Origin: a virus
Taxonomy: Duplodnaviria > Heunggongvirae > Uroviricota > Caudoviricetes
Virus record (IMG/VR): IMGVR_UViG_3300005323_000037
Span: 1 to 51,987 of that record
Strand: one strand, 5' to 3'
Length of the DNA stretch: 51,987 bases
Shown here: piece after piece, positions 20,848 to 46,598 of the stretch
Numbering within the stretch: the first letter of the stretch is position 1
Layout: each line of letters starts with the position of its first letter
Translations under genes and position numbers: made by a program
The notes under the pieces: generated by a model
Database searches by the model: none
What the model was told of the DNA's origin: nothing
The model's input: the letters and a program-made list of their open reading frames with translations, nothing else

Positions 20848-21050
20848 CAGATAACGTATTCAATCTATTAGATGGGCTACGTTTGAGCGAGCATGTAGTT
20901 CATTGCTATCGTGATAATTGCCACTGGATAGTAGAGATAAACAAGCTGGGCTTACGCGTGTCAACTCAAGGCGTATATCTATATACTACTATCAGGGATG
21001 CTAAAGAATTACTTGATGCGTATCTATACGAGGAATACAATGACAAGTAA
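20844..21050 (+). CDS. hypothetical protein, paralog of next ORF
   Basis: GAGGAGG SD, GTG start; LYTTIRDAKELLDAYL. Confidence 0.65.
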   Translation: MTDNVFNLLDGLRLSEHVVHCYRDNCHWIVEINKLGLRVSTQGVYLYTTIRDAKELLDAYLYEEYNDK

Positions 21051-21246
21051 TGCAAAGGATTTATTGGAAGAATTATATTGGAATCACTATGAAGTTACAT
21101 GTCATGAGCGCCCAACTAACGAATGGGTAGTTAGCATGAGTATAGCTAGATGCTATATTAAAAGAACTGGTCTAGACTTATACAATACTATTATAGAAGC
21201 AAAGTCTGATCTCGATCAGTACTTGAATAAGGAACATACCGCATGA
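21040..21246 (+). CDS. hypothetical protein, paralog of previous ORF
   Basis: GAGGA SD; LYNTIIEAKSDLDQYL. Confidence 0.65.
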   Translation: MTSNAKDLLEELYWNHYEVTCHERPTNEWVVSMSIARCYIKRTGLDLYNTIIEAKSDLDQYLNKEHTA

Positions 21247-21722
21247 CTGAACACAGTGAAGAATACAATCGTATCATTGGCCTAATTGCTGAAGAAACAT
21301 TTCATCTAATCCAAGAAATGGGAGGCGATCCAAATGTAGCCCTAGACATGATAGCGGACATGGCTGTTAAGGCCGTCAGAGATGACTTTGTTGGCTTCAA
21401 TGGTGTTGCCGCCATCCGTGCTAACTGGCTTGGTATTGCGGCTATCAAGTACGCAGCCAAGGTTGCATTCGTTGATCCGCCAGAAGGTGTATCTAGAGAT
21501 GAGCTAGACGACTTCTTTGATAGCGTGCTAACCTCCACCATGTTTGTCATGCATGATGCTTCATTCAGGGATGCTACCACGCCTAAAGTAGTTCCTACTT
21601 TGACACCCGAAGAATCATATGCTAAGATTGATCAGGTCCGTGATATCAGGAGCGGCAACGACGATATCTTTGATAGCTTTATTAGTAGCTTGTGTAAAGG
21701 AGAAAGCGGCTTAGTACAATAA
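21243..21722 (+). CDS. hypothetical protein
   Basis: ATGA coupling; last gene of the rightward arm. Confidence 0.65.
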   Translation: MTEHSEEYNRIIGLIAEETFHLIQEMGGDPNVALDMIADMAVKAVRDDFVGFNGVAAIRANWLGIAAIKYAAKVAFVDPPEGVSRDELDDFFDSVLTSTMFVMHDASFRDATTPKVVPTLTPEESYAKIDQVRDIRSGNDDIFDSFISSLCKGESGLVQ

Positions 21723-21795
21723 CAATACAATATAATAGAATGGGCATCAATACGATATCTAAAGTTCGAGCATAAGCAGAAATAGTAGAAATGAA

Positions 21796-21822
21796 AAGAG
21801 ACAGTCCAGCCAACTGTCTCTT
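21796..21822 (-). terminator. intrinsic terminator at the convergence point
   Basis: AAGAGACAGT/ACTGTCTCTT 10-bp perfect stem, 7-nt loop, T-run on the minus strand. Confidence 0.8.
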
Positions 21823-21843
21823 GCTTATTTCAATCATCAATTA

Positions 21844-22044
21844 TCAGGACGTCTTCTTCTTTTCCTTCTTCCTTTGATCAGTAGTATAGAATCCAGGTCC
21901 ATGATAGGTTACTGTTGGTACTGTATAGATTCTCTGCGTGTTAGCATGTCCATGCGGACACTTAGGTAGCTCGTTATCGTCAGCCTTCTTGCTTATCTCA
22001 AACCGATCACCGCAGATAGTGCACTCAAACAGGTATATAGGCAT
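21844..22044 (-). CDS. FmdB-family zinc-ribbon protein
   Basis: MPIYLFECTICG..FE...CPHG...GPGFYTTD. Confidence 0.85.
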   Translation of the reverse strand: MPIYLFECTICGDRFEISKKADDNELPKCPHGHANTQRIYTVPTVTYHGPGFYTTDQRKKEKKKTS

Positions 22045-22050
22045 AATCAA

Positions 22051-23025
22051 TCACTTCCTAGCTTTCCAGCGTTTACCCGCACCACAGTTACAGGCTATTC
22101 TAGCATCACCAGTAATCTGTGAGCCGTCCCTCAGATACAATGATCCATGTGATGCCTGGCCCAGTAAGCATGTACCGCCATCGCAGAATACTGGTATGCT
22201 TTTGCTATCAATTGGCTTCCAAACATTGCCTTCCCAGTCAACGATTGCTTTGCCCTCCATATCCTTGACCCAAGAGCGCTTGACATCATAAGAGTATGTG
22301 CTTAGTCCAGTCTTCTCGACCCGCATACGATTGGTCTGAGCCAATTTATCATCACTGTCTAGCGTCTTGATTACCGTTTGCACAGAAGACAGCATAGACA
22401 CTTTAGCAGCAATGCCGCGGATCAGTTCCAAGTCTTCAGGATAGTCAACTTCCAGCCTATATGGTCGCATGTACACGTTAGGTGGTGGCTCATGATACAG
22501 CGTATTGAATTCATTCCTATGCTGATGATAGTAAGGATCGACATGCTCGCGGGTAGTAGAATTCTTGACAATGGTCTCCCAGCCACGTCTGCTATATGGA
22601 AATTCTCTGCTCCCATACACTGGCGCTATTTGTGGTGGCAAGGCCCACTGAAATGCATCGCCGCCAAATTTATCCATTGTACGGCACATGTGTTCGATCA
22701 ATTCAACCGCATTGAATGGGCAATCACATAAGCCACGCATGACATACTTGCTGTCTGGAGCATAGTAATTTAGCGCCGCATTCATTGAAGATACCACATC
22801 GCCAGCCTTGCTACGGCTAACTGGTACACCCATCGCGTGGCCAAATTTGTCCAGTATATCATCAGTTGGATCAGTAGTGATATCTAGAATGGTATTGCCG
22901 ACAGCCTGCAAGCGCCGCGTGATCCAGTAAATCATTGGCTTACCAGCCACCTCAGCCATAGCTTTACCAGGTAGACGATCGCTATTCATGCGGGCAGTGA
23001 TAATGATTGCTAAGTCTCTACGCAA
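22051..23025 (-). CDS. SpsF/PseF/KdsB-like cytidylyltransferase with C-terminal Cys-rich extension
   Basis: ARMNSDRLPGKAMAEVAGKPMI, EHVDPY, RLEVDYPEDL; tail CDGGTC...CNCG. Confidence 0.85.
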   Translation of the reverse strand: MRRDLAIIITARMNSDRLPGKAMAEVAGKPMIYWITRRLQAVGNTILDITTDPTDDILDKFGHAMGVPVSRSKAGDVVSSMNAALNYYAPDSKYVMRGLCDCPFNAVELIEHMCRTMDKFGGDAFQWALPPQIAPVYGSREFPYSRRGWETIVKNSTTREHVDPYYHQHRNEFNTLYHEPPPNVYMRPYRLEVDYPEDLELIRGIAAKVSMLSSVQTVIKTLDSDDKLAQTNRMRVEKTGLSTYSYDVKRSWVKDMEGKAIVDWEGNVWKPIDSKSIPVFCDGGTCLLGQASHGSLYLRDGSQITGDARIACNCGAGKRWKARK

Positions 23026-23194
23026 TTATCCCTCCTAGCACAATCGCTGTAATTGCTGAAATAATTAGTATAGCCATAATGAATACTTTGATCGCGAATT
23101 CCTCCCTGGTCAGTGTCTTTATATCAGTGAGCATGATGGCAATTAGAAAGTACAGTACTCCGACCGAGTAAAATACTACACTATCTATGCTCAT
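23018..23194 (-). CDS. 58-aa two-TM membrane protein (not in ORF track)
   Basis: MSIDSVVFYSVGVLYFLIAIML...FAIKVFIMAILIISAITAIVLGGIIA*; ATGA overlap with the ATP-grasp stop. Confidence 0.6.
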   Translation of the reverse strand: MSIDSVVFYSVGVLYFLIAIMLTDIKTLTREEFAIKVFIMAILIISAITAIVLGGIIA

Positions 23195-24423
23195 TGCGCT
23201 ACCTCATTCCAGATTATGTCAACATTATTCGCTATATCCATCGCGCACTCAACCGTATTACTTGCGGCCACAATTGCAATCGGGCGATCGTGATGCGAGT
23301 TAGCGCCAGTGAAGTTTATCACACCATTTGACATATCAATTACCTTGACTCGATCGCCATCGCTGCTGTCCAATACCGAGCGCACTATTTGGGCACGATA
23401 TTTTCCTGCTCGTTCTGGCCAAGCAAAGCGAATTACAGAAGCTCGATTGCTCGTATGCCATAAGTGATCTGGATTACACTTACCTTCAGTAGCAAACTCA
23501 GCGTTAGCCAGTGTGATATTTACTCCAATTGCCCATGGCGCAGCTAGTGTACCCATAAAGCCACCCGACATCCTGCCAGCAATCTCAATCACATAGATTG
23601 TTCCATCATGGATAACTAGATCGCCCTTGATTGGGCCATCGTAGATGCCTAGTGCCCTGCCCGCCCGAGTCATGGTATCAGTGATTGCGTAGCCGTATTG
23701 ATGAGCGTACTTGCTAGGCATCTCGCCACCATTCTCAATGATATTAGGTAGTAGATGCTTAGTATCGGCATAGTTGCGATCGAGGACAATGGGCATGTAA
23801 GCGTCGCCATCAATCATCATACCCTCTACTGATAGTTGTGGTCCATCAAGGTATTCTTGTAGCATCAGACGAGTATCTTTGATACAGTATTGCGATGATC
23901 TACTTGCTAAACTTTGTAGCTCGTCTGGATTACGGACCATGAATACGCCACGTGCACCACGATTATCTAGAGGCTTGATTATCATTGGATATACTAGATT
24001 GGTAGCATGAGTAATATCAACGACATCAAACGCACTGTTGGTGATTATATATTGGGGTATCGGTACATAGCTATCCAGCGCCTCTAGCATATCTGCTTTA
24101 TTGCTAACTAGCCTAGCTGCTTCCAATCCGATGCTAGGCAACTCTAGTTTGCTCGCTACATACGCTACCGTCATTGGCGCATCGCACGCTACAGCCATAA
24201 TACCATCAACGCATTCATCAGCTTGAATTAGGTAGCTAGTAAGATTGTTCAGTACCTCTTCTGGACTATAGATAGAAGCTCTTACAAAACCATCTACAAT
24301 ATCCTTAGCAGGCGAGTCTGGATTGCCATCTACCGCAATAACGCGATAGCCAGCATTCTTTAGATCAGTGATGGCTATGCGATGCTCGTGAGACGCGCCT
24401 AGAACAACAAGTGTTTTGTGCAT
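23191..24423 (-). CDS. ATP-grasp ligase
   Basis: VLGAS, AVDGNPDSPA, SNKADM, IIKPLDNRGARGV, QEYLDGPQLSVE, IEIAGRMSG. Confidence 0.88.
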   Translation of the reverse strand: MHKTLVVLGASHEHRIAITDLKNAGYRVIAVDGNPDSPAKDIVDGFVRASIYSPEEVLNNLTSYLIQADECVDGIMAVACDAPMTVAYVASKLELPSIGLEAARLVSNKADMLEALDSYVPIPQYIITNSAFDVVDITHATNLVYPMIIKPLDNRGARGVFMVRNPDELQSLASRSSQYCIKDTRLMLQEYLDGPQLSVEGMMIDGDAYMPIVLDRNYADTKHLLPNIIENGGEMPSKYAHQYGYAITDTMTRAGRALGIYDGPIKGDLVIHDGTIYVIEIAGRMSGGFMGTLAAPWAIGVNITLANAEFATEGKCNPDHLWHTSNRASVIRFAWPERAGKYRAQIVRSVLDSSDGDRVKVIDMSNGVINFTGANSHHDRPIAIVAASNTVECAMDIANNVDIIWNEVAQ

Positions 24424-24665
24424 TATTTGTTCACTATTTCACTGATTGCATATATGATAAGTGCGCCAATAAATATGATTAGAAAGATAACTGCTCCTGC
24501 TGCTACACTACAGATTAGCGGTAGAAATACTGTTAGCCATGGTATATGCGTGATATGTAGCAGATTCAGTACGACCATAGTTACGGTGGCAAAGAAGCAG
24601 AGTGAGCCGATCAAGCCGCTAAAGTCAATTACAACTCTTCTACTGGGAGTATTGTTGTCGCTCAT
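24423..24665 (-). CDS. small two-TM membrane protein
   Basis: Two hydrophobic segments. Confidence 0.7.
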   Translation of the reverse strand: MSDNNTPSRRVVIDFSGLIGSLCFFATVTMVVLNLLHITHIPWLTVFLPLICSVAAGAVIFLIIFIGALIIYAISEIVNK

Positions 24666-25270
24666 TATTGATATCCTTTCGATACGATAGTTGCGTCCTT
24701 GATTACTACATTATCAGGCAGTCGCATAATTGCTATGATTGCATCCACTGCTTCGCCAATAGTCAATGCTAAGTCTGCGTCTGGAATAATGTTTGCTGCT
24801 AGTGGATCATCTTTATACTTATCCCAGAATTTACTATCTATGCCGCCAAAGTTTAGAATAGACAGCTTGGTGCCCATTTTTCTAGCTGTCCTACCACGTA
24901 ACTCAACATACTTGAGCAGAGCAGCTTTTAGCGCAGAGTAGTCCTCCATGTATGGCGCGCCATATCTAGCTGCATTGGAGCCGATAACAATAATGTTCTT
25001 ACACCTGTATGCAATAGCTTCTTCAATAAACATGGTTGGGTAGGTATAATTAGAATGTACTAAATCATCTACTGGCGACTCGAATGGATAGCCAATGTAT
25101 ACCTCTCCAGATAAGCATATAGCATAATCGTATCTCTCGCTTGGATACCTGTCTCTACCAGTAAAAAAGATAGTTGCAGCCATATAAGAAAGTTTTATGT
25201 CTAGTACTCTAGCAATGTCGCCATTGCCACTGCCTGAGATTATTATTGTCTTACCTGCTAAATCGTTCAT
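24665..25270 (-). CDS. short-chain dehydrogenase/reductase
   Basis: KTIIISGSGNGDI Rossmann start, IGSNAA, YSALK (YxxxK), NFGGIDS; start at ATGA overlap 25270. Confidence 0.82.
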   Translation of the reverse strand: MNDLAGKTIIISGSGNGDIARVLDIKLSYMAATIFFTGRDRYPSERYDYAICLSGEVYIGYPFESPVDDLVHSNYTYPTMFIEEAIAYRCKNIIVIGSNAARYGAPYMEDYSALKAALLKYVELRGRTARKMGTKLSILNFGGIDSKFWDKYKDDPLAANIIPDADLALTIGEAVDAIIAIMRLPDNVVIKDATIVSKGYQ

Positions 25271-26412
25271 CCTAGCCAGCAATCTCTTTCTCGACATTCG
25301 CTACATGGATATGGAAACTTGCCATCTATATGGGCCTGTCTTAACTTATTCATATAGTCGCCATGCCACCAGTCATAGAATGAAGTATTCTTGATGTTAC
25401 TACCATCTGTAAGCTCGGTTCGAGCATCGTGACAGCAGCCAGTGTATGCGGAGTTTACAGTAACCGACCCTATCGACCACAAGTGCTGGCACGGCATCTC
25501 GCTTACCACTGCTGCCTTAGCTGCGTCATCTGCTTCAGATACTACCTGCTCCTTCAGCCATGGTCGCATTGAGTCTAGATTCTTAACAAACACATCATAG
25601 ACGCCTCTTTGCTTAATCCAGAAACGAATGAAGTCAACTATCTCATCGCGCGTGCTCTCATTATTGATAATCTGAATTCGGATGCGCAAATTAGACGAAG
25701 GTGATAGCGGTCTATTGTTTAGGAAGTTTAGTACGCGCCTTACTGTGCGATCAAATACTACTTGAGCATTCTCCTTCTTTGCTGATGGCCGATTCTTAGC
25801 ATATGTCTCAGCAGTTATGCCATCAATGCTAATGATCAAATCACCAGACCAGTCTTCATTGAGCAAATGTAAATTATCTACATCACCATTGGTACTCAGA
25901 TTGATCACCTTGAAGCCCGCGCGCTTGCCCCGACTAATCATATCGGCAATTGTATAGTCGCCATCGCGCCAAAGCATCGGCTCGCCTAGTTGGTATAGCG
26001 ACAGTCCGTATACTGGATACTTAGCGCACTCCTTCATTAGCTTATTATATACTTCCCACTTCATCGTGCCATGCCGATTGGTTGCGGTAATTGAGCAGAA
26101 TGTACAGCGTCGATTACAGGCCGTAGTAGGCTCGATGATAAAGTAAGATGGGAAGTCTGGTACAGTTTTGCTTGCATAATCTAAACGCGCTTGCTCAATT
26201 ACTGGTTTAGATAGTGGCCTAAGTGTACTAGCTACTAGCCTATTGATATCATCAGCGGATACATTATTGCCGCGCTCGTTGCTTTTGATGACATTGTAGC
26301 CAGCCGCGCCAAATGACACTCCTTGCTTCTCTGGCACGCCCATCATTGGCACGCCATTGATATCTAGTGGCTCGGCCCAGGTGAATGCAGTGGTTGAGTT
26401 AATTAGTTCCAT
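25267..26412 (-). CDS. radical SAM protein with SPASM/twitch domain
   Basis: CNRRCTFC; GEP; STNG; C-terminal PCQHLWS...GCCHD...PCSEC. Confidence 0.9.
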   Translation of the reverse strand: MELINSTTAFTWAEPLDINGVPMMGVPEKQGVSFGAAGYNVIKSNERGNNVSADDINRLVASTLRPLSKPVIEQARLDYASKTVPDFPSYFIIEPTTACNRRCTFCSITATNRHGTMKWEVYNKLMKECAKYPVYGLSLYQLGEPMLWRDGDYTIADMISRGKRAGFKVINLSTNGDVDNLHLLNEDWSGDLIISIDGITAETYAKNRPSAKKENAQVVFDRTVRRVLNFLNNRPLSPSSNLRIRIQIINNESTRDEIVDFIRFWIKQRGVYDVFVKNLDSMRPWLKEQVVSEADDAAKAAVVSEMPCQHLWSIGSVTVNSAYTGCCHDARTELTDGSNIKNTSFYDWWHGDYMNKLRQAHIDGKFPYPCSECRERDCWLG

Positions 26413-26737
26413 TACTTATTTCTTCTAGCATTATACCTACTAGCGCCCTCAGATTCCAGCATGGATTAGCCGCAATCCACTCATCAAAACTATACCCTGT
26501 CCACCGCCTGAACCAATTACCATCTTTGCCTAGCTTGTGCAAGTACCTTACAATCCCGCCACTGGTACATAGCGTAGTCTTATTCGGCAACTGTATGCCA
26601 TGCTCGCTAGCTAGCTTTTTCCAATACTCATCATCAGGCCAGTCGAACCTCACATTTGAATTCAAGGCCGCGATCTTGGCCGCCCTACGGGCTAGAAGCG
26701 CTTTATCGTGCGCCTCTGGACTATTTATGCTATACAT
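26399..26737 (-). CDS. hypothetical protein
   Basis: Overlap-coupled within the glycan cluster. Confidence 0.65.
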   Translation of the reverse strand: MYSINSPEAHDKALLARRAAKIAALNSNVRFDWPDDEYWKKLASEHGIQLPNKTTLCTSGGIVRYLHKLGKDGNWFRRWTGYSFDEWIAANPCWNLRALVGIMLEEISNGTN

Positions 26738-27572
26738 ACATTCCGTCCCTTATTGAGCCCATCTGCTCCAATAATCTATCAGCCGCTTTTCCATCAATCT
26801 GCTTAGTCATACTATAATCAATCTCATATGGCCTGCTAACAAACTCGGCCATCTTCTCAGGAGTCTCTGGCAAGCCAACAATTGGGTAGGCTCTTGCTAA
26901 TCCTAACGCTTGCATGCTTCTGGCATATACCAAATGATATCCGCTCGGGCTAAACAGGTACATCGGCTTACCTAGAGCAGCGGCCTCCCAAGCTGTTACG
27001 CCCATATAGGTGCATACATTGCGGCAGGCGCGCATAATCTTGTACGTATCGAAGCCCCCATTGCCCGTGCTGCCATCAATGATATACATTGTTGCATTAG
27101 GTAATGCTCGGCCAAGCAACCCAGCTATATCAAATGTGGTCGGTGCACTATTATATACATACCAGTCTGCGCCAGTAAATTCAGAGATCGAGCTATTGAT
27201 AAAGTGCTGCCTAACCAGCGCCTTAGATGGATGGTCAATCACCCAAGGTAGATCGGCATATGTTTCATCTATATCAGCGCCTAGAATGCAAACCTTTACA
27301 CTATGGTACTTGTGTAGATGATTAGTAATCGCTTTTCGATTAGTTGGCACATCTAGAATCACCCAATCAAATGCTGTATGCTCTAGAATCACATCGGCCA
27401 CATTGATATTGAATGAGGGCGGAATGATGTATGTATCAACCGCTATATCTACATTGCTGACAACCTTGACATAATGACCAGCAGCGCGTGCCGCGCGGAC
27501 TACTTCTAGTGAGCGATACATGTGACCGTTGCCATAGTATTTTCCCGCCATGAACCAGACTAATATATTCAT
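26730..27572 (-). CDS. PseG/SpsG-like UDP-sugar hydrolase (GT-B fold)
   Basis: AGKYYGNGHMYRSLE, DWVILD, MGVTAWEAAALGKP, IDGKAADR. Confidence 0.75.
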   Translation of the reverse strand: MNILVWFMAGKYYGNGHMYRSLEVVRAARAAGHYVKVVSNVDIAVDTYIIPPSFNINVADVILEHTAFDWVILDVPTNRKAITNHLHKYHSVKVCILGADIDETYADLPWVIDHPSKALVRQHFINSSISEFTGADWYVYNSAPTTFDIAGLLGRALPNATMYIIDGSTGNGGFDTYKIMRACRNVCTYMGVTAWEAAALGKPMYLFSPSGYHLVYARSMQALGLARAYPIVGLPETPEKMAEFVSRPYEIDYSMTKQIDGKAADRLLEQMGSIRDGMYV

Positions 27573-27585
27573 TGTTCATTCCTGT

Positions 27586-28470
27586 CTAAGTATAGCTAAT
27601 GGTAGATGCCGCTTTAGCTACAACAAATAAGCCGCGGCCCCAGTTGAGCTTGCTATTTAGTAGCCTGTATAGCTTGAACGCTTTGATGCCCATGCGCTTT
27701 TCAAATTGTAGTCTGAGCATGTGACATTTATAGCCGACTTCCGAATTGTTGATATAGTCAAAGCCCATCAAGCCGAATAGCTCCATTGGAAAGGTAGCTG
27801 ATATTGATACTACATTCATATCTGCTTTATGTAGAACAGTTTGAATGGACTGCTTTGAGAAATAATTCACATGTGGAACCTGTGCATAAAATGCACCGAA
27901 CCGCTTGCTAAGCAGGTTTTGTAATGGATTGAATTCATTGGGAATGCAGAGCAGTAAACTAGCCGCTTTATTATAGCCGCAATAGTAACGAATAAAATCA
28001 ACTGGGTCAGCTATATGTTCTAGCACATATGCCATTCTTAGCGAAGTATAATTATTGTGCACCGCGCTGCTATTTGTACTAAACGCGCAAAGCATACTGT
28101 TGACAGCTACTTCTCTAGCTTTGTCCGATGGTTCGATACCGCACGAGCTAAAGTAACCTGGCCTACTAGAATTCCAGTGATGCATGAACCAGCCGTAGCC
28201 ACAACCGATATCTAGCAACTGATTGCGATAGCCATTTCTTAGCAAATTGATCTGCCAATTATAGCACGCGTCCCACAATCCTAGATTGTGCTCTAGCACC
28301 TTCTCCTGATACCACTTATCGTTAGCGTATTCAACATAGAATTTATCATCAGCGCTATAGAATTGATCCAGCCCGCTCGGCATCGGATATTGATGCGCGT
28401 ACCCGCATGTCTTGCAGTCAATTATTGTCATGCTACCAGTCTGTGCTATTGTCGCTCCATAGCAATTCAT
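27586..28470 (-). CDS. class I SAM-dependent methyltransferase with N-terminal Zn ribbon
   Basis: CKTCG, LLDIGCGYG, GIEPS, VLEHIADP, IPNEFN, HVNYFS. Confidence 0.88.
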   Translation of the reverse strand: MNCYGATIAQTGSMTIIDCKTCGYAHQYPMPSGLDQFYSADDKFYVEYANDKWYQEKVLEHNLGLWDACYNWQINLLRNGYRNQLLDIGCGYGWFMHHWNSSRPGYFSSCGIEPSDKAREVAVNSMLCAFSTNSSAVHNNYTSLRMAYVLEHIADPVDFIRYYCGYNKAASLLLCIPNEFNPLQNLLSKRFGAFYAQVPHVNYFSKQSIQTVLHKADMNVVSISATFPMELFGLMGFDYINNSEVGYKCHMLRLQFEKRMGIKAFKLYRLLNSKLNWGRGLFVVAKAASTISYT

Positions 28471-29288
28471 ATACCCGCCCAATAATTATTGATAGCCCAT
28501 AATACTTGCTGCGTCTTATATGCGTCCATAAGATTAGGGTAATGCACCCCATTCAAGAATGTCTTCCACATCGAATGAAACATGCTATCATCAGGAGTAA
28601 GCTGATACTCTTGCGAACCATTCTCGTACACAATCTCAAGATATGTATTGCGCTCTATAGTGTGCCCCATTTCGGCATACTCAAGGATGCTAAACTGGCA
28701 TTCATTATCAGTAATACCTTTGATGCGATACGCGTCATGATCGTCTTCTATCTTTTCATGCACAGCGGATGTAATCCAGTTTATACCACCTGACAAACAA
28801 TTGATTGTATCCACATCATGGCTGACGTGATCGAGTAGCACTCCCCAAACTGGTAAGTCGGGTCGATAATGGCGAGCATGGATATTGTATGCTACCACCT
28901 TACCATACTTCTCAGTATCCACATCCGCCATGGCATGAATGATTGCTGGATGATAGCGCCAATTATATGCTATCATTATCTGGGCTTCATCAGCCATATC
29001 TGCTAAGCTCTTTGCGGTAGCGCTGCTACTAAGATCGCATAAAGGCTTCTCGCATATAGCGGGCATATCCATGCGAATAGCTTTTTGGATGTATTTCAAA
29101 TGACTATCGGGTGGCGTAGCAATTACCATGCAGTCAAATAGCGTATCTGAGTATAGGGCATCCTCTAGGCAGGTATAATCAGCTGCTAGATTAGGGTCAA
29201 CTGTATAGACCTTCAGCCCATAATGAGTAGCATATTTAGCATGACGTTTGCCGGCACGGCCATTGCCAATGATGAGACATGTATCCAA
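28467..29288 (-). CDS. Gfo/Idh/MocA oxidoreductase
   Basis: IIGNGRAGKRH, IATPPDSH, ICEKPL, AYNWRYHP, SHDVD. Confidence 0.88.
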   Translation of the reverse strand: MDTCLIIGNGRAGKRHAKYATHYGLKVYTVDPNLAADYTCLEDALYSDTLFDCMVIATPPDSHLKYIQKAIRMDMPAICEKPLCDLSSSATAKSLADMADEAQIMIAYNWRYHPAIIHAMADVDTEKYGKVVAYNIHARHYRPDLPVWGVLLDHVSHDVDTINCLSGGINWITSAVHEKIEDDHDAYRIKGITDNECQFSILEYAEMGHTIERNTYLEIVYENGSQEYQLTPDDSMFHSMWKTFLNGVHYPNLMDAYKTQQVLWAINNYWAGI

Positions 29289-29290
29289 TA

Positions 29291-29536
29291 TTAGTATCCC
29301 CTCAGTCGTCTTATCATGCGAAGATGGTGCTTGCGGATGCCGCGATATTTCTTATGCTTAGACTTTCCATCAAACTGCGCAGTCGTTAGAGTAACTGTAG
29401 GCTCAGTATAGAGCGGGTCAACAATCTGATAGATGTGTGGATCGGGATCGAGATAGTCAGGAATATCGACAAGCTGATAAGAGTAACCACTTGTGTTGCT
29501 AATATCTCTGACCATTTTGAGCTCTTGCATAATCAC
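29291..29536 (-). CDS. hypothetical protein
   Basis: Overlap-coupled. Confidence 0.5.
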   Translation of the reverse strand: MIMQELKMVRDISNTSGYSYQLVDIPDYLDPDPHIYQIVDPLYTEPTVTLTTAQFDGKSKHKKYRGIRKHHLRMIRRLRGY

Positions 29537-30003
29537 ACTCTGTAATCTCGGAACAGCGCCATATTCACATACCCCTGCATAGGATCGTATTGTACGGTAG
29601 CGGGCGCGACGTTTATACCAGTTATGCGAAGAGCAATATGAGCATGTGGCCCTGTACTATTACCAGTATTACCACTTAGTCCAATTACTTGACCTCGTAC
29701 CACTGTATCATTGAGATTGACTAACATCTGACTAAGATGGGCATAGATAGTATTGTAGCCATCATCTCCTACGCGAATGTATAATCCATAACCACCATTG
29801 AACTTGATAGGATCATCCAGTTTGGCAGTGATAATTATACCATCGTGCATAGCAAGAATAGGTGTGCCAACAATGCAGGAGTAGTCGATTCCCTGATGAT
29901 AGGGATAGCCCAGCTTTTTGTATATTTGTGGATTTTGTCCATACCATTGTGTGGGAATTCCTACTCCACTAGCAAATGGTCTACTTAGGGATATCGCCTT
30001 CAC
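29533..30003 (-). CDS. M23 family peptidase
   Basis: HQGIDY, YAHLS, SGNTGNSTGPHAH. Confidence 0.9.
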   Translation of the reverse strand: MKAISLSRPFASGVGIPTQWYGQNPQIYKKLGYPYHQGIDYSCIVGTPILAMHDGIIITAKLDDPIKFNGGYGLYIRVGDDGYNTIYAHLSQMLVNLNDTVVRGQVIGLSGNTGNSTGPHAHIALRITGINVAPATVQYDPMQGYVNMALFRDYRV

Positions 30004-30268
30004 GCGCTTTCCTCCAGTTTATAATCTCTGTTTCAAACTTGATATTTACATGTACGTTCATTTCATTATCAGCTTCATATAATGCTTTAGCATGATAACG
30101 AATATAATTGTTCTCAGCATCGATTGCGTCCATATGCGCCCATCCTAATGTGCCGTTATATCTACCATCGAGAAGCTCCTCAGCTAGCTTCTGTCCTATC
30201 TCTCTGAATGCATCTTTATAATTTATATTGTACAGTTCCTCGTCGCTGATATTAGATAGATTAGACAT
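29981..30268 (-). CDS. hypothetical protein
   Basis: Start moved to ATG 30268 (GAGGA SD). Confidence 0.55.
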   Translation of the reverse strand: MSNLSNISDEELYNINYKDAFREIGQKLAEELLDGRYNGTLGWAHMDAIDAENNYIRYHAKALYEADNEMNVHVNIKFETEIINWRKAREGDIPK

Positions 30269-30278
30269 TGTATTTCCT

Positions 30279-31049
30279 CTATGCCATAGTCGAACAAATA
30301 CCAATGCATTCAGTTTCTACATCGTCTTCATCATAGTATGATGACAACTCTCCCCTTTCTATTCTACCTCTAAATTCTTCTAGGGTTTCATCTTTAAAGA
30401 AATGAACGTCCTTTCCAAGCCACTCTCTAACCTCGCGCTCAACACGTTCTCTGTCTGCGTATACGTCAGGAAGTTTATCATAAAGTAGTTTCCATTGTTT
30501 TTTGCCGGCCCTAACACACCCTCCCGAGCAATTATTATGAGTAAAACCAAGTTTGTATAGTATTGGCTCTTCGATTTTTGCTTGAACTAGAAAATCGTTT
30601 ACTTGCTTTTTTGTCGTACCATTATCAATTAATGGAAACAGCAGCTTTACTGACTTTCTCGTTCTTGTTGATACCTCCTGATAAACACTAATCAATCTAA
30701 TCGCTCTGTGTGCTTCATTTACCCCTATTCCAAATACAATCGTATCCCCGTCTTTATAAAATCTTTGTAAGCGCAATGCCTTTAGTGTGGCCGAGCAGAA
30801 TGGCATTCTATTATTTGCTAATCCAGAACGGTCATAGAATAACTCCTCTGGCGATCTGCCATCGTCGTCGTGGATTGTTTTATGATTAAAGTATATTTCT
30901 AGATCGGCTAGAAATCTGTATAAATCAGGGTGCTCCCAATGGGTATCATTGAAGTACAGAATAACATCTTCTTTTGGATAGTTTTCTAATACCCAATTAG
31001 CACACCATGCCGAAGTCTTGCCGCCGCTTAGGGCGACGATTATACTCAT
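30279..31049 (-). CDS. PAPS-reductase-like PP-loop protein (phage type)
   Basis: LSGGKTS, DTHWEHPDLYRF, HNNCSGGCVRAG. Confidence 0.8.
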   Translation of the reverse strand: MSIIVALSGGKTSAWCANWVLENYPKEDVILYFNDTHWEHPDLYRFLADLEIYFNHKTIHDDDGRSPEELFYDRSGLANNRMPFCSATLKALRLQRFYKDGDTIVFGIGVNEAHRAIRLISVYQEVSTRTRKSVKLLFPLIDNGTTKKQVNDFLVQAKIEEPILYKLGFTHNNCSGGCVRAGKKQWKLLYDKLPDVYADRERVEREVREWLGKDVHFFKDETLEEFRGRIERGELSSYYDEDDVETECIGICSTMA

Positions 31050-31057
31050 GAGCGCTC

Positions 31058-32305
31058 CTATCTATTAGTAAATAGCCTTCTCGGCAGCCCGTCTTCGCCA
31101 CCTAACGCAGCTAATATTGCTTCGTCATTCATCTCTGCTAGCTTGTTATTTACATCGAACGCCGCTTTTACAGTGTGGTCCACTGCAACTTTATTGTGCG
31201 CCGCACTAGGCACATTCGGTCGATTGATTAGCACGCCATGTTCTTCCATGCCGCGGATAAATCCAGCGCGTCTAATCTCATTCTTGAATTGTAGCACAGA
31301 ACGCGGCGCATGGCCAATTACATCACAGCCAACTGTGCGCAGTCCACTAATTAGCATATCGCCAACTTTATACAACTCATCAATGCGCTTCTGTGTCCAG
31401 TGATCGAGAATATAATCACAAGCGGCTAAGCTGATAGAATCGCCTGCATTAGTTGAAGATACAAATACGGGATCATTCCTAGCAAACCAGCTCATGAATT
31501 CTTTAGGCGCAACTGTAGCAGCGATTGGATAGCCATTACCGAGTGATTTGCCCATACAGATAATATCAGGCTGAATATTGTATTTCTCGCACGCGCCACC
31601 CATACTATACCTGAGTCCGGTAACTACCTCATCTACAATCATCAGGCAGTTATTGCGGTTGCAGAATTCACGTAGCTCGCCGTAGTAATTGATTGGTAGC
31701 TCGTCTATGCCATGCTCGAAGATTACGGCAGCTAGCGCATTCTTACCATCCCATTGATCGAGGCTACTCATATCGCCTAGTACAAATGGGTGCATATGCA
31801 TGCCGACTTCTTTGGGGATGCCATGGGCTGGAGGGGTTAGAATCACAAACTGGTCAGCTTGTCCGTGGTACCCGCTTGAGCAAACTGCATTTTTACCAGT
31901 AATAGCACGACTGAGCCTAATAGCTACATTACATGCATCACTACCACTCTTTACCCAGCGCGTCTGTAGATCAGTATTACTCCAGCCAGGCACATGCCAA
32001 TTCAGTATCTGATTCAGCTTACTTGCTACCGTATACTCAAGATAGTATGGCAACGAGAAGCCATTACCTTTTTCTACATGCATGATGATATGGCTAGTAA
32101 AGGCTGTCTTCTCAGCATCCTGTCCCCAGCCGAGCAAGCATGCGCCTAGCCCGCCTACCCAGTCAATGTACCATGAGCCATTGCTGCCACGTACAGAGTA
32201 GCCGCTGCCTTCTACAATGTATTTGATAGGGAAGTTCTTGCCGCCCCAGAATGTAGAATCCTTGCTGAATGTGCCCGCAATTGGTACGCTATCGAATATA
32301 CTCAA
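31058..32305 (-). CDS. class III PLP aminotransferase (GSA-aminomutase-like)
   Basis: IDWVGGLG, KSGSDA, GYHG, DEVVTG, GKSLGNGYP (PLP lysine). Confidence 0.88.
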   Translation of the reverse strand: MSIFDSVPIAGTFSKDSTFWGGKNFPIKYIVEGSGYSVRGSNGSWYIDWVGGLGACLLGWGQDAEKTAFTSHIIMHVEKGNGFSLPYYLEYTVASKLNQILNWHVPGWSNTDLQTRWVKSGSDACNVAIRLSRAITGKNAVCSSGYHGQADQFVILTPPAHGIPKEVGMHMHPFVLGDMSSLDQWDGKNALAAVIFEHGIDELPINYYGELREFCNRNNCLMIVDEVVTGLRYSMGGACEKYNIQPDIICMGKSLGNGYPIAATVAPKEFMSWFARNDPVFVSSTNAGDSISLAACDYILDHWTQKRIDELYKVGDMLISGLRTVGCDVIGHAPRSVLQFKNEIRRAGFIRGMEEHGVLINRPNVPSAAHNKVAVDHTVKAAFDVNNKLAEMNDEAILAALGGEDGLPRRLFTNR

Positions 32306-32457
32306 CGTTTCTTCTCCTTTAGTGATCGCATTTTCTACGGCTCATTACTTCGATATGAAAATAATATTCATGAGTGTGCATATCGTAAACCCAGCTAGGT
32401 AGCTCGCATAAGCAGAAGCGTTGCCAGAACCAATGATAATTACTGGATGGGCAGCGT

Positions 32458-32763
32458 CTAAAAAGGATTGGAAAACGGTGACCAAGTAACAGTGTCATAA
32501 TCTATACTAGAAGCTCCTTGTTTGGGGGTAAATAAAGCGTCACTGATAACGCGCTGATTATCACCCGTAACTTTCAGCGCACCTGATTCAAGTGCAACCG
32601 TAATTAGATTACGCATATCGGCAGACGTAGAGGCCGATCCCCAAATTGCTATAGCTAAATCTGTACGAGGTCCATACATCTTACGAATTCTATCTAATTC
32701 CGTCAATGCAGAATCATACCCCTCTTGGCTTATAGTGGCATCGTATTCTTTTATAATTGTCAT
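32458..32763 (-). CDS. hypothetical protein
   Basis: ATGA-coupled start at 32763. Confidence 0.6.
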   Translation of the reverse strand: MTIIKEYDATISQEGYDSALTELDRIRKMYGPRTDLAIAIWGSASTSADMRNLITVALESGALKVTGDNQRVISDALFTPKQGASSIDYDTVTWSPFSNPF

Positions 32764-33260
32764 AGTATAGTTACCTTCCATTCTCTGTTACGCACTACAT
32801 TAAGTGATATATTCAGCTTGCCATACTCAATGCTAGTTGTTGGCCCAACTATATCTAATAGCTGGTCAACGTAGAAGCTCCTAAGCTTCATTAGTTCAGT
32901 CTGTGTTACATCATGCTTAGCATCCAGAGTCTTATTATATTTTGTATTAGAAGCGCTCCAAATACTATTGACTAACTCTTTGTCCAATACTGGCTCAAAT
33001 ATGTCTACAATTTGGTCAGCATTCTCGCAGATAAAATCTAGATCATCAATGTTCAATCTATCTGCCAATGGCTGACAAGCACGTGCAAACTCGTCTTCAA
33101 TATCATGCAACGTATTTATTTTTACCACGTCAGCTATATAAGCAACCTTGCCAGTTACTTCAATAATCTGCTTTACTAATTCCTCTACCTTACTATCATA
33201 GTCAGCTACATTGACTATCCTACTGTCCCGGACGCCTTCCATCTTCGCCTCTTCTGCCAT
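32760..33260 (-). CDS. hypothetical protein
   Basis: AGGTGA upstream; in operon. Confidence 0.6.
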   Translation of the reverse strand: MAEEAKMEGVRDSRIVNVADYDSKVEELVKQIIEVTGKVAYIADVVKINTLHDIEDEFARACQPLADRLNIDDLDFICENADQIVDIFEPVLDKELVNSIWSASNTKYNKTLDAKHDVTQTELMKLRSFYVDQLLDIVGPTTSIEYGKLNISLNVVRNREWKVTIL

Positions 33261-34050
33261 ACTTTCTCACCTTCATTTCTAAGCTACTTATATCCTTATG
33301 CGTGCCACAAATATTCTTAGCTGTCTGCAAACTATCAATGTACCTGCTAAAACTACTCACGGTAGTCGATATATCATTGTCTGGATTATCGGGATTATTG
33401 GCTATCTTAACATGCTTTTCGAAATATGTATAGCCTGCTGCGATTGCTAATTGCGCTGGTAAATTATCACCTTTAGTATGATCGCTGTAGCCGATCGCGT
33501 CAACTGCGTATTGTAAGCTCAGTGGCCAGCAGATATTTGCATCTTCAGGCTTGGTTGGATACTCTGCTTTGCACTGCATGAGAATCAATCGTCGTGAATG
33601 TCCAGTCATCTCGATTGCATGATGTACTTCTTCTACAGTGGCTGCGCCAGTAGATAGCATCAGCGGGATACCAATCTTATTGCTTAGTCTGGCTGCCACT
33701 CTAAGCATGTCATCATAAACAATATCGGTAGAGGCAATCTTGATACCTGATAGATACTTAGCGCACTGTTCTAGCTGTTCGATATCAAACACTGATGCCC
33801 ATAGATCAATGTTTTCTCCTTGACAGGCGCGTGCAATACGAGCGATATCTAGATTGGACAACTTGTATGCTTGCATTTTCTGATACGAATCAGGGTCACG
33901 CTCAGCGGAATATAGCTTGTCCAATCCAACCTGTAGCTTCAATGCGTCCGCGCCCGCTCTAGCAATTAGTCTGGCGGCGTAAACAATCTGATTGACGTCT
34001 ATCCAGTTAGTACCTAACTCACCGATAACATAGAAGCCGCGTTCGTTCAA
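33220..34050 (-). CDS. neuB: NeuB/PseI/SpsE-family nonulosonate synthase, no SAF domain
   Basis: VIGELGTN, ADALKLQ, IKIASTDI, LSTGAAT, YPT, GYSDHT, EKHV. Confidence 0.88.
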   Translation of the reverse strand: MNERGFYVIGELGTNWIDVNQIVYAARLIARAGADALKLQVGLDKLYSAERDPDSYQKMQAYKLSNLDIARIARACQGENIDLWASVFDIEQLEQCAKYLSGIKIASTDIVYDDMLRVAARLSNKIGIPLMLSTGAATVEEVHHAIEMTGHSRRLILMQCKAEYPTKPEDANICWPLSLQYAVDAIGYSDHTKGDNLPAQLAIAAGYTYFEKHVKIANNPDNPDNDISTTVSSFSRYIDSLQTAKNICGTHKDISSLEMKVRKYGRRGEDGRRPGQ

Positions 34051-34979
34051 ATAGCACCTCCAAGTTTGGCGATTACTTCTTCTGGCTGCATGCGTGGCGC
34101 TTTATCTGAACGCATATAATCGGGAGTCTCGTCTACTCTCGATCCTTCTTCTGATTCGATTAAGCAGAGATCACTATATCGCTTAGGCAGAATTATGTGC
34201 TCACCTGGCGCTACTAATATCTCATGCTGCTTTTCGCCTGAACCTAGCTCCTGATATTCAATTGGATAATCTGGACCAGCAATGTAGTGCGCTAAGTCAT
34301 TGATTGAGAATGCTTGCAGATTGCCTGGAGCCATTATATAGCCGCCATCGTAGTCATCCATGCAGGCTAAAGCACGCATTACTAAATTGATCGCATCTTC
34401 AACTTTGAGAAAGAATCTAGTAGGGGAAGGCGTGCGCACGATCAGTGGCTGCCCATTCTTGATTGCATCACGCCAGATAGTCAGTACGCTGCCGTTGGAG
34501 CCCATGACATTGCCGTAGCGCAGGGCTGCATAGTTAGAGTATTTAGTATTGTAGCTGCGCCAGATGCGTTCACCGAGAGATTTAGTAGCGCCATAAAAAT
34601 TCAAACTATTCACGCATTTATCAGAGCTAATAAACAGCGCCGTATCCACACCAGCATCCTGACATGCGTGTGCTACAACATCCGTACCTTCAACATTGAC
34701 TCGAATATACTCATTGACTGAGCGCTCACCAGTGTCTACCCGCTTCAATGCAGCAGCATGAATCACTGTATCACAACCTTCGGCTGCCCGATAGATCATT
34801 TTGTAGTTACAGATATCTGTCAGTACGCATCTTACATCTGGATAGCGCTGATGAAACGCTTCCTGTTTATGCGGATCACGTGACACAATTGTGATATCAT
34901 AATCTAGGCGCGTAAAAGCGGCTACTAAAGCATTTCCCAATGTTCCAGTGCCGCCAGTGATTAGAATCTTATTTCTCAT
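34047..34979 (-). CDS. pseB: UDP-GlcNAc 4,6-dehydratase (PseB/CapD family)
   Basis: ITGGTGTLG, HAAALKRV, ISSDK, YGATK, RYGNVMGSNGSV, TRFF, GEKQHE. Confidence 0.88.
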   Translation of the reverse strand: MRNKILITGGTGTLGNALVAAFTRLDYDITIVSRDPHKQEAFHQRYPDVRCVLTDICNYKMIYRAAEGCDTVIHAAALKRVDTGERSVNEYIRVNVEGTDVVAHACQDAGVDTALFISSDKCVNSLNFYGATKSLGERIWRSYNTKYSNYAALRYGNVMGSNGSVLTIWRDAIKNGQPLIVRTPSPTRFFLKVEDAINLVMRALACMDDYDGGYIMAPGNLQAFSINDLAHYIAGPDYPIEYQELGSGEKQHEILVAPGEHIILPKRYSDLCLIESEEGSRVDETPDYMRSDKAPRMQPEEVIAKLGGAI

Positions 34980-35030
34980 ATGCAATGGCTCCCATCCAAG
35001 TTAAGTTTCATTCTATCTATACCATTGCAT

Positions 35031-35059
35031 ATTATATCACATATCTAATAATATGTCAA
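35031..35059 (-). promoter_or_regulatory. sigma70 consensus promoter heading the glycan cluster
   Basis: TTGACA 35059-35054, 17-bp spacer, TGTGA extension, TATAAT 35036-35031. Confidence 0.85.
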
Positions 35060-35090
35060 GTAGGTTGTAAGTGCCACGCTCTATTTTCCG

Positions 35091-35363
35091 CTACTCAAGA
35101 ATCCTATATTTTACACCGCTCTCTTGCGCTGAAGCAATAGAGTCTAGAAAATACATGTGACTAGAAGCGGTTGGGCGCGCCCAGCTAGGATCGTGAAGTA
35201 GCCAGCTACTATGTCGCTTTCTGAGTAAGCTATACTTAGGACAGCGATAGCGAACATGATAGTAGCGTTTACCATTATCAATGTCGTAGAGACGTAATGG
35301 TATGATATCTATATTCAATAGCTCACCACAGTATGTACAGTAGTACTTCTTTAGTTCGAGCAT
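35091..35363 (-). CDS. zinc-ribbon protein
   Basis: YYCTYCG...YRCPK. Confidence 0.65.
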   Translation of the reverse strand: MLELKKYYCTYCGELLNIDIIPLRLYDIDNGKRYYHVRYRCPKYSLLRKRHSSWLLHDPSWARPTASSHMYFLDSIASAQESGVKYRILE

Positions 35364-36004
35364 GTTGCTTCCTTTTTACGATTAGCTATAAACTCTTCTG
35401 CTCGATCATAGAGTTGAAATAAGCATCTAGCTATTCCAACACAGAGTCCAGCATAACCAGCATCGCTGCATTCTTTTGTATCGCCTATAACATAAAATTT
35501 CCAATGTGAGTATACATAATCTTCTTGGTACTGTCTACGCATACACTCGCCTTCGTGCATACTATATTCATATAGTACATTTCGTAACGCGGCGCGCGGA
35601 TTATTCTTATTATCGTATACAATAGCAAACCTAGCAATCTCTGTCATCACGCTGTCCTCGTCGCGATACTCATATGTATCTATTACATACTCGTCGCTAT
35701 AACCGTTGCGAAATAGGTATGCATGCACGTTTGCTAATTCGTTGAGCGCATTATTGATTGCCACGGGAACACTTATCTCATTGTGCGGCCACAGCTTTTC
35801 ATCTTTGAATTTGATAATTGAATCAACGCACGTATGTAATAGCTTTATCGTAGCTGGGCCACAGTACTTATCAATCATCTCATGTAAAAGTATAACTGAA
35901 AATTCAACCATAGCTTCTTCATTACTACCAAACAGATCGGCTATTATTGTAACATTTTTACTTTTCTCGTCCCAAAAGTCATTCGACCTTTCCCTTGTAG
36001 CCAT
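35351..36004 (-). CDS. hypothetical protein
   Basis: 217 aa, TAATG coupling. Confidence 0.7.
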   Translation of the reverse strand: MATRERSNDFWDEKSKNVTIIADLFGSNEEAMVEFSVILLHEMIDKYCGPATIKLLHTCVDSIIKFKDEKLWPHNEISVPVAINNALNELANVHAYLFRNGYSDEYVIDTYEYRDEDSVMTEIARFAIVYDNKNNPRAALRNVLYEYSMHEGECMRRQYQEDYVYSHWKFYVIGDTKECSDAGYAGLCVGIARCLFQLYDRAEEFIANRKKEATCSN

Positions 36005-36630
36005 TACAGTTTCTCCATAACCTTACACACTCTAGCATAATCAATCGGCGCGTAATGCGTACAGTCAACTCCTACATCCATTACTTTACCTGCTCCGATA
36101 TAGTTGCCATGCGAATGTCCATGTAAATGCCACGAGCCATGATATTTCCGATCCCAATCTCCTTGCGGGAAATGGCTCAGTGCAATGTATTGAAACTCTG
36201 CATTTCTCTCAGTAGTCTTGATGCCAATAGTGGGCATCTGCTCAATGATGCTAACCAAATAGCCATCCATAGATGTAATGGTTTGCGCCACCTTTTCCAT
36301 CTCTCGATAATCGCCCACTTTCATGTGGCTAGCATAAGCAGTTGCTATACCCATCTCGGCTAGCCACTGTTTATCATGATGCTTTGGATAACCTAGTACA
36401 TATATCCTACCATGCACGCTCTTGAAGAACTGTTTAGCCGCGCTTATGCCGCCTAGTGTAACATCGGCTAGATGAAATACAATATCAGATGGACTGACTA
36501 CTGCGTTCCAGTTATCCACTAACTGTCTATTCATTTCAGCGGCGTTAGCAAATGGTCGGTTACAATACTTGATAATATTTGCATGTGAGTAATGCGTATC
36601 CGCGGTGAAAAACACATTCGTGGCTGCCAT
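36004..36630 (-). CDS. calcineurin-like metallophosphoesterase (variant motifs)
   Basis: FTADTHYSH, HLADV, LSHFP, HLHGHSH, DVGVD; GAGGAA SD at 36630. Confidence 0.85.
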   Translation of the reverse strand: MAATNVFFTADTHYSHANIIKYCNRPFANAAEMNRQLVDNWNAVVSPSDIVFHLADVTLGGISAAKQFFKSVHGRIYVLGYPKHHDKQWLAEMGIATAYASHMKVGDYREMEKVAQTITSMDGYLVSIIEQMPTIGIKTTERNAEFQYIALSHFPQGDWDRKYHGSWHLHGHSHGNYIGAGKVMDVGVDCTHYAPIDYARVCKVMEKL

Positions 36631-36670
36631 TTCCTCATTGTCGCTATTGATGTCTACAATGTACAAAGTA

Positions 36671-43497: not shown

Positions 43498-43515
43498 TGT
43501 TAGCCTCCGTGCGTA

Positions 43516-46557: not shown

Positions 46558-46577
46558 ACCATCCTATTCTTGCAACA

Positions 46578-46588
46578 ATTATAGCACA
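46578..46588 (-). promoter_or_regulatory. extended -10 element upstream of the secreted protein gene
   Basis: TGTGCTATAAT in the 46558-46598 intergenic gap. Confidence 0.5.
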
Positions 46589-46598
46589 AGCTGAGCAA

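Follow-up and report, generated by a model that had tools for sequence, protein, structure and literature searches.

The virus record IMGVR_UViG_3300005323_000037 is a linear metagenomic assembly of 117,274 bases from IMG/VR, ~84% complete and without terminal repeats. The window, that is, the whole stretch of DNA analyzed here, comprises its first 51,987 bases and carries in its central part a minus-strand gene cassette predicted to direct the synthesis, activation, and decoration of a nonulosonic acid (NulO), a sugar of the acidic nine-carbon, sialic-acid-like type. Nonulosonic acids occur on bacterial cell surfaces, flagella, and capsules and affect immune recognition, phage adsorption, and motility. 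The cassette constitutes a single unit of ~13 kb extending from promoter through terminator (bases 35059-21796). It is headed by a consensus sigma-70 promoter, TTGACA-N17-TG-TATAAT, which matches at 12/12 positions and carries the extended -10 TG (35031-35059, minus strand), and is closed by a bidirectional terminator-like hairpin (21796-21822). An initial annotation of the window had proposed a co-oriented block of pseudaminic/legionaminic acid synthesis genes under one promoter. Profile and structure searches recovered all enzyme families named there, on the minus strand between positions 34985 and 22051, and the single promoter was likewise confirmed.

Profile searches were carried out with Pfam and NCBIfam, using the NCBIfam equivalog cut-offs as a benchmark, and every core enzyme scores far below these cut-offs. 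The gene at 34047-34985 (minus strand, as are all cassette genes) encodes a UDP-GlcNAc 4,6-dehydratase of the inverting PseB/FnlA/CapE type (PF02719, 184.6 bits). Among the NCBIfam models, PseB scores highest (173 bits; cut-off, 408), and LegB reaches 46.9 bits. The best matches in the Protein Data Bank (PDB), 4j2o and 2gn4, align the SxDK...YGATK catalytic motif with solved PseB/FlaA1 and CapE-type enzymes. The adjacent gene (33220-34050) encodes a NeuB-family nonulosonate synthase (PF03102, 127.3 bits) consisting of a TIM barrel only, the protein ending after the barrel with no SAF domain. Its SDH and EKH metal-binding motifs align with those of 6ncs and 8h2c, its scores with the NeuB (103 bits) and PseI (90 bits) models are both far under the cut-offs, and just two closer relatives were found among 5.8 billion proteins.

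The predicted hydrolase was recognized by fold. The 280-amino acid (aa) product of the open reading frame (ORF) at 26730-27572 had no Pfam hit, and a PDB sequence search gave only chance-level matches. In the Atlas structure search, 10/10 listed matches of its model belong to the PseG/SpsG families of nucleotide-sugar hydrolases, with template modeling (TM) scores of 0.78-0.83, the best being 0.83 over 275 residues. The protein also bears an N-terminal G-x-G-H-x-x-R motif. BLASTP detected no significant similarity between it and a 259-aa ORF at the equivalent place in a distant relative (L011). Activation would fall to an SpsF-type cytidylyltransferase (22051-23025; CTP_transf_3, PF02348, 63.9 bits), which is 38-50% identical to its counterparts in the cassettes of relatives. 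Its closest PDB match is the SpsF-like 6oew, and the KdsB models score 38 bits against cut-offs of 155-281. Residues 206-324 form a 120-aa C-terminal extension with a Cys-rich end and no family match; the L011 protein is of the same length (323 aa).

The aminotransferase encoded at 31058-32305 had been predicted in the initial annotation. It is indeed present, as a class-III (HemL-like) pyridoxal phosphate (PLP)-dependent enzyme (PF00202, 111 bits) of a phage-enriched clade rather than as a DegT-type protein. It is nearest to glutamate-1-semialdehyde aminomutases, and an alignment of 32 homologs shows no variation at K253, the PLP lysine, or at D225.

The five tailoring enzymes proposed earlier are also encoded in the cassette. 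A GFO/IDH/MocA sugar dehydrogenase (28467-29288; PF01408, 42.4 bits) shows a weak NCBIfam match to UDP-GlcNAc 3-dehydrogenase; a GFO gene is found in 28/80 viral aminotransferase loci and stands beside the aminotransferase gene in cellular loci. The methyltransferase of the Methyltransf_23 family (27586-28482), a SAM-dependent enzyme with an N-terminal CxxC, and the ATP-grasp carboxylate-amine ligase (23191-24423; PF02655, 46.8 bits; PF13535, 42 bits) are both kept in the cassettes of relatives. The gene for the radical-SAM enzyme (25267-26412; PF04055, 33.1 bits; SPASM, 18.3 bits) is optional among them. Its product contains CX3CX2C at residues 99-106 and a C-terminal Cys cluster of the SPASM/twitch type. 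The fifth enzyme is a short SDR-like protein (24665-25297), which scores 20.4 bits with adh_short, below the Pfam cut-off; the L011 genome yields full SDR hits at the matching position.

Collectively, the dehydratase, the PseG-fold hydrolase, the synthase, and the cytidylyltransferase uphold the proposed pseudaminic/legionaminic core only in outline. Profile hidden Markov model (HMM) searches of the 117-kb record gave no hit for a DegT aminotransferase (PseC, PF01041), for a GNAT acetyltransferase (PseH, PF00583), which is also missing among the cassette ORFs, or for Maf (MptE-like, PF01973), and the cassette contains no Epimerase_2 gene. Because the DegT aminotransferase, the GNAT enzyme, and Maf are all missing, and because the core enzymes score under the equivalog cut-offs, the predicted pathway is not a canonical pseudaminic or legionaminic one.

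Judging from gene content, the record clearly represents a tailed phage: TerL, portal, helicase, and major head and major tail proteins are all encoded, in accord with the viral context assumed for the cassette. The cassette does not depart in composition from the rest of the phage. Its G+C content (GC) is 44.8% and its GC at third codon positions (GC3) 43.2%, compared with 47.1% and 42.8% for the structural genes. Codon usage of the cassette and of the structural genes is correlated (r = 0.89), and the replication genes match too. Gene order is identical in two independent assemblies, from JGI and ENA, with proteins 52-95% identical, and this conservation includes a glycosyl hydrolase gene and a phosphoesterase gene upstream of the promoter. 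In two close relatives (L002 and L003), the cassette promoter and a 55-base leader are almost invariant, and the sequence further upstream diverges.

Across the whole record, the perfect TTGACA-N17-TG-TATAAT promoter occurs in eight copies (at 8345, 11810, 13451, 35059, 57051, 68643, 88653, and 90608), and a ninth copy with an 18-base spacer lies at 70188. These promoters head the portal, replication, sugar, tail, head, and early units, and their number is far above chance, which suggests that the host sigma-70 polymerase reads all modules of the phage. Since the same perfect promoter precedes the portal, head, and tail operons, the cassette appears to be wired into the phage's own transcription program. 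By these signs, the cassette is phage-owned and, given its ameliorated composition, long resident, the product of neither misassembly nor recent capture, which supports the long residence and phage-like codon style claimed for it in the initial annotation.

To what extent are such cassettes shared with other phages? The NeuB protein of the phage, used as the sole query, retrieved no viral contigs, and tblastn against deposited phages gave a single weak hit. Because this protein is too divergent, the aminotransferase was used as the search handle and returned 323 homologs at E < 1e-20. Homologs of 37-52% identity were found only in phage-like contigs, within cassettes. Where the identity is 44-49%, the homologs are encoded on long phage contigs together with PseB-like, SAF-less NeuB, GFO, Methyltransf_23, ATP-grasp, SDR, and SpsF-type cytidylyltransferase proteins, radical SAM being variably present. 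The two longest of these contigs have the cassette directly behind the tail genes, in one case behind a tape-measure gene. Within IMG/VR, a PseB-like gene is located at most 10 kb away in 65/80 loci containing a related aminotransferase, and NeuB HMM hits were obtained for 41 of the 50 sampled records with such an aminotransferase, among them every one of the eight with a completeness of 90% or more.

Among cellular genomes (one per species, 185,579 species), the best aminotransferase relative is 33% identical. In the top cellular loci, a CTP_transf_3 gene adjoins the aminotransferase gene or is fused to it, as in a metagenome-assembled genome of Syntrophales, where a single 688-aa ORF encodes both cytidylyltransferase and aminotransferase, with GFO, NeuB, and PseB-like genes in the vicinity. 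The aminotransferase, GFO, and cytidylyltransferase proteins of the phage are only ~25-33% identical to these cellular counterparts, and by sequence the phage aminotransferases appear to form a clade of their own, apart from the cellular ones.

A canonical NeuB query against 50,697 deposited phage records picked up an uncultured phage of 484 kb, a viral contig from a marine single cell, a contig of bacterial origin, and nothing else. NeuB is thus nearly absent from deposited phage genomes yet common in IMG/VR phages. Our reading of the literature turned up no publication on a complete phage-encoded nonulosonate pathway, and viral nonulosonate is mentioned neither in a large phylogeny of NulO synthases nor in a review of giant-virus glycans. 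The earlier statement that no characterized phage carries such a pathway therefore holds for cultured phages, the two viral NeuB records in the deposited set being uncultured, and fails for metagenomic ones. Phage NulO cassettes are a recurring, unpublished theme, frequent in IMG/VR, and the present one is a variant rather than a singular discovery. Its distinctive features are the non-canonical enzyme set, the phage-enriched aminotransferase clade, and a clade-wide tie to a pair of transferases resembling TagF/KpsC.

These transferases are encoded outside the window, in the neck interval of the genome between the major head and major tail genes. Atlas comparisons place the first, a 438-aa glycosyltransferase (GT) of the GT-B fold (genome positions 58201-59517), near Glyphos_transf (TagF), Capsule_synth (KpsC/KpsS), and related GT-B families. 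Its homologs carry PF04464, and an HP motif is invariant in the family. GT-B families of the Glyphos_transf and Capsule_synth types use CDP- or CMP-linked donors. The second, of 404 aa (59631-60845), has a PHROG glycosyltransferase match and is 52% identical to its counterpart in a distant relative. The fold of the 438-aa protein rests on the Atlas model, single-sequence AlphaFold2 models of the two GTs being low in confidence (mean pLDDT 40 and 33).

The 438-aa GT-B gene is present in just 5/50 viral records bearing the aminotransferase, namely those whose cassette is of the methyltransferase/ATP-grasp/SpsF-type kind, and 5/5 of these records share the major head protein of the phage at 44-67% identity. 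Conversely, NeuB is found in 10 of the 12 GT-B-bearing records of at least 33 kb, the other two being fragments (completeness, 34% and 40%). In the wider capsid lineage, seven genomes that are close to complete contain neither GT-B nor NeuB. This pattern fits joint gain and joint retention of the cassette and the GT pair; since it involves essentially one clade, it is suggestive and does not amount to statistical proof.

Taking these observations together, we propose the following route. The PseB-type enzyme would, by homology, convert UDP-GlcNAc to a 4-keto-6-deoxy sugar, and the hydrolase, to judge from its fold, would free the hexose. The SAF-less NeuB is expected from its homologs to condense this hexose with phosphoenolpyruvate (PEP), and the SpsF-type enzyme, again by homology, to add CMP. 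The GFO dehydrogenase and the class-III aminotransferase may oxidize and then aminate a position of the sugar, so that with the cytidylyltransferase they probably make up an oxidize-aminate-activate tailoring unit. Alternatively, the class-III aminotransferase might stand in for PseC. The ATP-grasp ligase could acylate the amine in place of PseH, and the methyltransferase, radical-SAM, and SDR-like enzymes could introduce further decoration. The donor would finally be used by the GT-B enzyme (58201-59517) and the second GT (59631-60845) to glycosylate virion proteins.

The general reading, that a phage-owned operon directs a non-canonical route to a decorated, CMP-activated nonulosonic sugar and that the neck GTs attach it to virion proteins, has in our judgment about an even chance of being correct. 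The more specific version, in which a phage clade makes a new decorated sugar without PseC and PseH, with the class-III aminotransferase, GFO, and ATP-grasp enzymes in their place and the GT-B enzyme transferring the sugar to the virion, is put forward more tentatively.

With regard to the role of the sugar, virion glycosylation is favored because the GT pair lies in the neck operon and because no membrane transferase, flippase, integrase, or DNA base-handle enzyme was found. It is the best-supported role, albeit unproven and with about an even chance of being right, and we would place it ahead of host-surface conversion, a different product, and DNA modification, in that order. Among the roles suggested in the initial annotation, the virion coat thus gains from the linked neck-operon transferases, and DNA modification loses support.

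It should be noted that several points weigh against virion glycosylation by a phage-made NulO. Both the product and the virion glycan are predictions from sequence, and the record is only ~84% complete. With PseC and PseH missing, the pathway may depend on host enzymes, and, with the core enzymes scoring below the equivalog cut-offs, the sugar may be other than pseudaminic or legionaminic acid. The 438-aa protein has a sub-threshold Epimerase_2 hit (26.6 bits, cut-off 30.6) and could be a NeuC/LegG-like hydrolyzing epimerase instead of a transferase. The co-occurrence of cassette and GT-B within one clade corresponds to roughly one evolutionary event. Finally, the head and tail proteins have no obvious Ser/Thr-rich acceptor tail.

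Among the competing explanations, conversion of the host surface fares best. The CMP-nonulosonate, made or remodeled by the phage, would in this case be placed by host transferases, or by the phage GTs, on capsule, lipopolysaccharide, flagellin, or pili, altering receptors and blocking superinfection in the manner of the prophage-encoded EpaA/EpaB with Acinetobacter capsule. A host with a Pse/Leg-type sugar of its own would account for the lack of PseC and PseH, there is a published case of NulO tailoring by phage genes that involves a CTP_transf_3-containing enzyme (PMC12053666), and cellular cytidylyltransferase, class-III aminotransferase, and GFO genes neighbor each other in NulO loci. However, no integrase was found in the record, the linked transferases sit inside the head-tail operon, and the phage's own dehydratase, hydrolase, and synthase would be needless for pure tailoring. 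Moreover, no flippase-type, polymerase, polyprenyl-phosphate transferase, or other membrane transferase gene was seen, the sole membrane protein in the block being an 80-aa ORF. We therefore regard conversion of the host surface as unlikely, if a serious contender.

Synthesis of something other than a NulO, whether another PEP-derived keto-acid or a small molecule such as a nucleoside-type metabolite made with the radical-SAM, ATP-grasp, and aminotransferase enzymes, seems to us improbable. The distance of NeuB, PseB, and the cytidylyltransferase from their equivalog cut-offs speaks for it, as do several conserved ORFs with no assignable function and the lack of SAF, a domain that helps bind substrate in the Neisseria enzyme (PMC8208679). 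Yet ~30% of NulO synthase homologs have no SAF either (PMC8208679), NulO loci are marked by just this combination of PseB, PseG fold, NeuB, and CTP_transf_3, and the cassette is linked to GT-B enzymes of a type using CMP/CDP donors.

Even less can be said for hypermodification of DNA, by which the sugar would be attached to phage bases to evade restriction. Phages do glycosylate their DNA (10.1101/2023.12.21.572611), one relative has a Mom-family gene after its cassette, and the block includes a PAPS-reductase-like gene. However, that gene is missing from all relatives, the transferases are in the neck module and not with the replication genes, and the record yields no hit to TET/JBP (PF12851), thymidylate-synthase-like hydroxymethylase (PF00303), or TGT/DpdA (PF01702). 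The preprint on DNA glycans just cited does not mention nonulosonic acids. DNA modification is accordingly very improbable.

Misassembly or misbinning of a host sugar locus onto phage DNA, conceivable for a metagenomic assembly without terminal repeats, merits hardly any credence, given that the junctions of glycosyl hydrolase, phosphoesterase, promoter, and cassette recur in the independent JGI and ENA assemblies, that there is no GC or codon-usage break, that the phage-type promoter is common to the structural operons, and that the cassette follows tail genes in distant relatives too.

Virion glycosylation by a phage-made NulO can be set against several known systems. The canonical CMP-pseudaminic acid pathway of Campylobacter and Helicobacter (PseB, PseC, PseH, PseG, PseI, and PseF) has in common with the phage cassette a PseB-type inverting dehydratase, a PseG-fold hydrolase, a NeuB-family synthase, a CTP_transf_3 protein, and organization in one operon. 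The cassette differs in lacking the DegT aminotransferase and the GNAT acetyltransferase, in its SAF-less synthase and SpsF-like cytidylyltransferase, in scores well below the equivalog cut-offs, in its five extra tailoring enzymes, and in being phage-borne.

A closer parallel in gene content is the flagellin-modification operon sfmABCDE of Shewanella oneidensis, which encodes a NeuB/PseI-like synthase, an SDR, a SAM methyltransferase, and an ATP-grasp ligase (PMC3765264). S. oneidensis has no clear PseH, PseG, PseI, or PseF, and the product is a nonulosonic acid with a further, variably methylated group (PMC3765264). The phage has the same domain set (NeuB-like, SDR-like, methyltransferase, ATP-grasp), a likeness at the level of domain content. 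Shewanella differs in possessing PseC and Maf and in having flagellin as the target, and the phage adds the GFO, class-III aminotransferase, radical-SAM, and PseG-fold enzymes. Besides sfmABCDE, an experimental precedent for amino-acyl plus methyl decoration is provided by the N-methyl-glutamyl legionaminic acid of Clostridium botulinum flagellin (PMC2674064). All three families of the bacterial cytidylyltransferase/class-III aminotransferase/GFO trio, seen in five cellular loci (L093-L096 and L105), are represented in the phage, whose enzyme set most resembles this trio combined with sfm-type decoration.

Phage-encoded systems provide a second set of comparisons. The mycobacteriophages of Freeman et al. 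(2023) reportedly carry glycosyltransferase genes in the structural operon, and glycosylation of their virions is said to have been shown. They reportedly have no sugar-synthesis pathway of their own, use host sugar donors, and involve no nonulosonic acid. The placement of the GT genes in the structural operon is the same in the present phage, for which virion glycosylation is only predicted. Their study is cited in PMC12801897.

Pseudaminic acid is remodeled by the products of the epaA and epaB genes of an Acinetobacter baumannii prophage, a CTP_transf_3-domain protein and an SDR (PMC12053666). These genes thus share with the present cassette phage-borne NulO enzymes of these two kinds. They differ in being two tailoring genes of temperate phages that need the host psa genes and alter the host capsule, whereas here a 13-kb cassette includes its own dehydratase, hydrolase, and synthase, with no integrase. 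Lytic cyanophages with kdsA and kdsB likewise encode synthesis and CMP activation of an ulosonic acid (PMC12801897), in that case the eight-carbon Kdo, made by a different synthase family and read as related to the host cell wall.

The cassette also contains genes with no evident place in the pathway. A PAPS-reductase-like PP-loop protein (30279-31049; PF01507, 30 bits) is encoded by a gene of lower GC (39%) that is missing from L002 and L003 and from 80/80 viral aminotransferase loci. Since it is missing from both close-relative assemblies and has the lower GC, the gene is an accessory insertion. Its candidacy as a PseA/WbpG-type amidotransferase was ruled out, given the lack of an NCBIfam hit and its absence from every relative.

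A stand-alone M23 peptidase (29533-30003; PF01551, 83.9 bits) is, at 95.5% identity in L002 and L003, the best-conserved gene among close relatives. It is missing from all distant cassettes, for which reason it was rejected as a pathway member, and it is probably a lysin that happens to sit in the operon. The 80-aa protein encoded between the SDR-like and ATP-grasp genes (24423-24665) has two hydrophobic helices according to a hydropathy scan, and may, like the M23 peptidase, belong to a lysis function whose parts are dispersed over the operon. The claim that phage-type genes are interleaved with the pathway was thus borne out for the PAPS-reductase-like and M23 genes, which lie inside the operon, and not for the CxxC "zinc ribbon" ORFs (35091-35363 and 37536-37910), which lie upstream of the promoter and outside it.

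The remaining ORFs of the cassette are small and have no assigned function. A 166-aa protein (32760-33260) is conserved at 67% in close relatives, and neither Pfam and NCBIfam profiles nor the Atlas search, which gave nothing above chance, matched it. A 107-aa protein (29981-30304) is conserved at 81% in close relatives, and another 107-aa ORF (32458-32781) is not conserved in relatives. An 81-aa basic protein (29291-29536) and a 112-aa protein (26399-26737) complete the set.

Around the cassette, the window has the layout of a tailed phage. The large terminase is encoded at 2910-4583 and a Mu-type portal at 6558-8162 (minus strand); in the latter, an in-frame N-terminal helix-turn-helix of the MerR/excisionase type (PF13411, PF12728) precedes the Portal_Mu domain. 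A replication module on the plus strand encodes a Sak4-like ATPase, a helicase, and an N6/N4 methylase. Just upstream of the cassette promoter, both kept in close relatives, are minus-strand genes for a phosphoesterase (36004-36666; phrog_547) and a Glyco_hydro_cc-type hydrolase (36671-37573). Large tail proteins with carbohydrate-binding domains occupy 39343-51948. Outside the window are the genes for the major tail (56119-56844) and major head (65966-66886) proteins. No tRNA was detected in the window, and no Rfam family matched within 21000-36000.

Two relatives have features of their own. On an ENA contig of 88,294 bases, the Mom-family gene mentioned above comes after a cassette with two radical-SAM genes, of which one encodes a B12-binding protein. 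In IMGVR_UViG_3300026176_000228 (G001), the major head gene (49343-51156) matches in two pieces ~850 bases apart, with a TGA in one, and a 1319-aa neighbor of the cassette has Hint/LAGLIDADG intein domains; the head gene may hold an intron, intein, or homing element.

The class-III aminotransferase, GFO, SpsF-type, ATP-grasp, methyltransferase, and radical-SAM enzymes, a set whose chemistry is unassigned, recur in bacterial NulO loci, and the cassette described here is a minimal natural version of that set. Spanning 13 kb under one consensus promoter, it is a handy unit for expression and analysis, and, if our interpretation is right, it would offer a compact and tractable system in which the widespread trio of cytidylyltransferase, aminotransferase, and GFO in bacterial NulO loci could be linked to a reaction. 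The phage would then be the first known to wear a sialic-acid-like coat on its particle, and virion glycosylation, so far shown in mycobacteriophages, would be extended to acidic nine-carbon sugars. Such a coat would bear on how phages persist, adsorb, and avoid recognition in their habitats.

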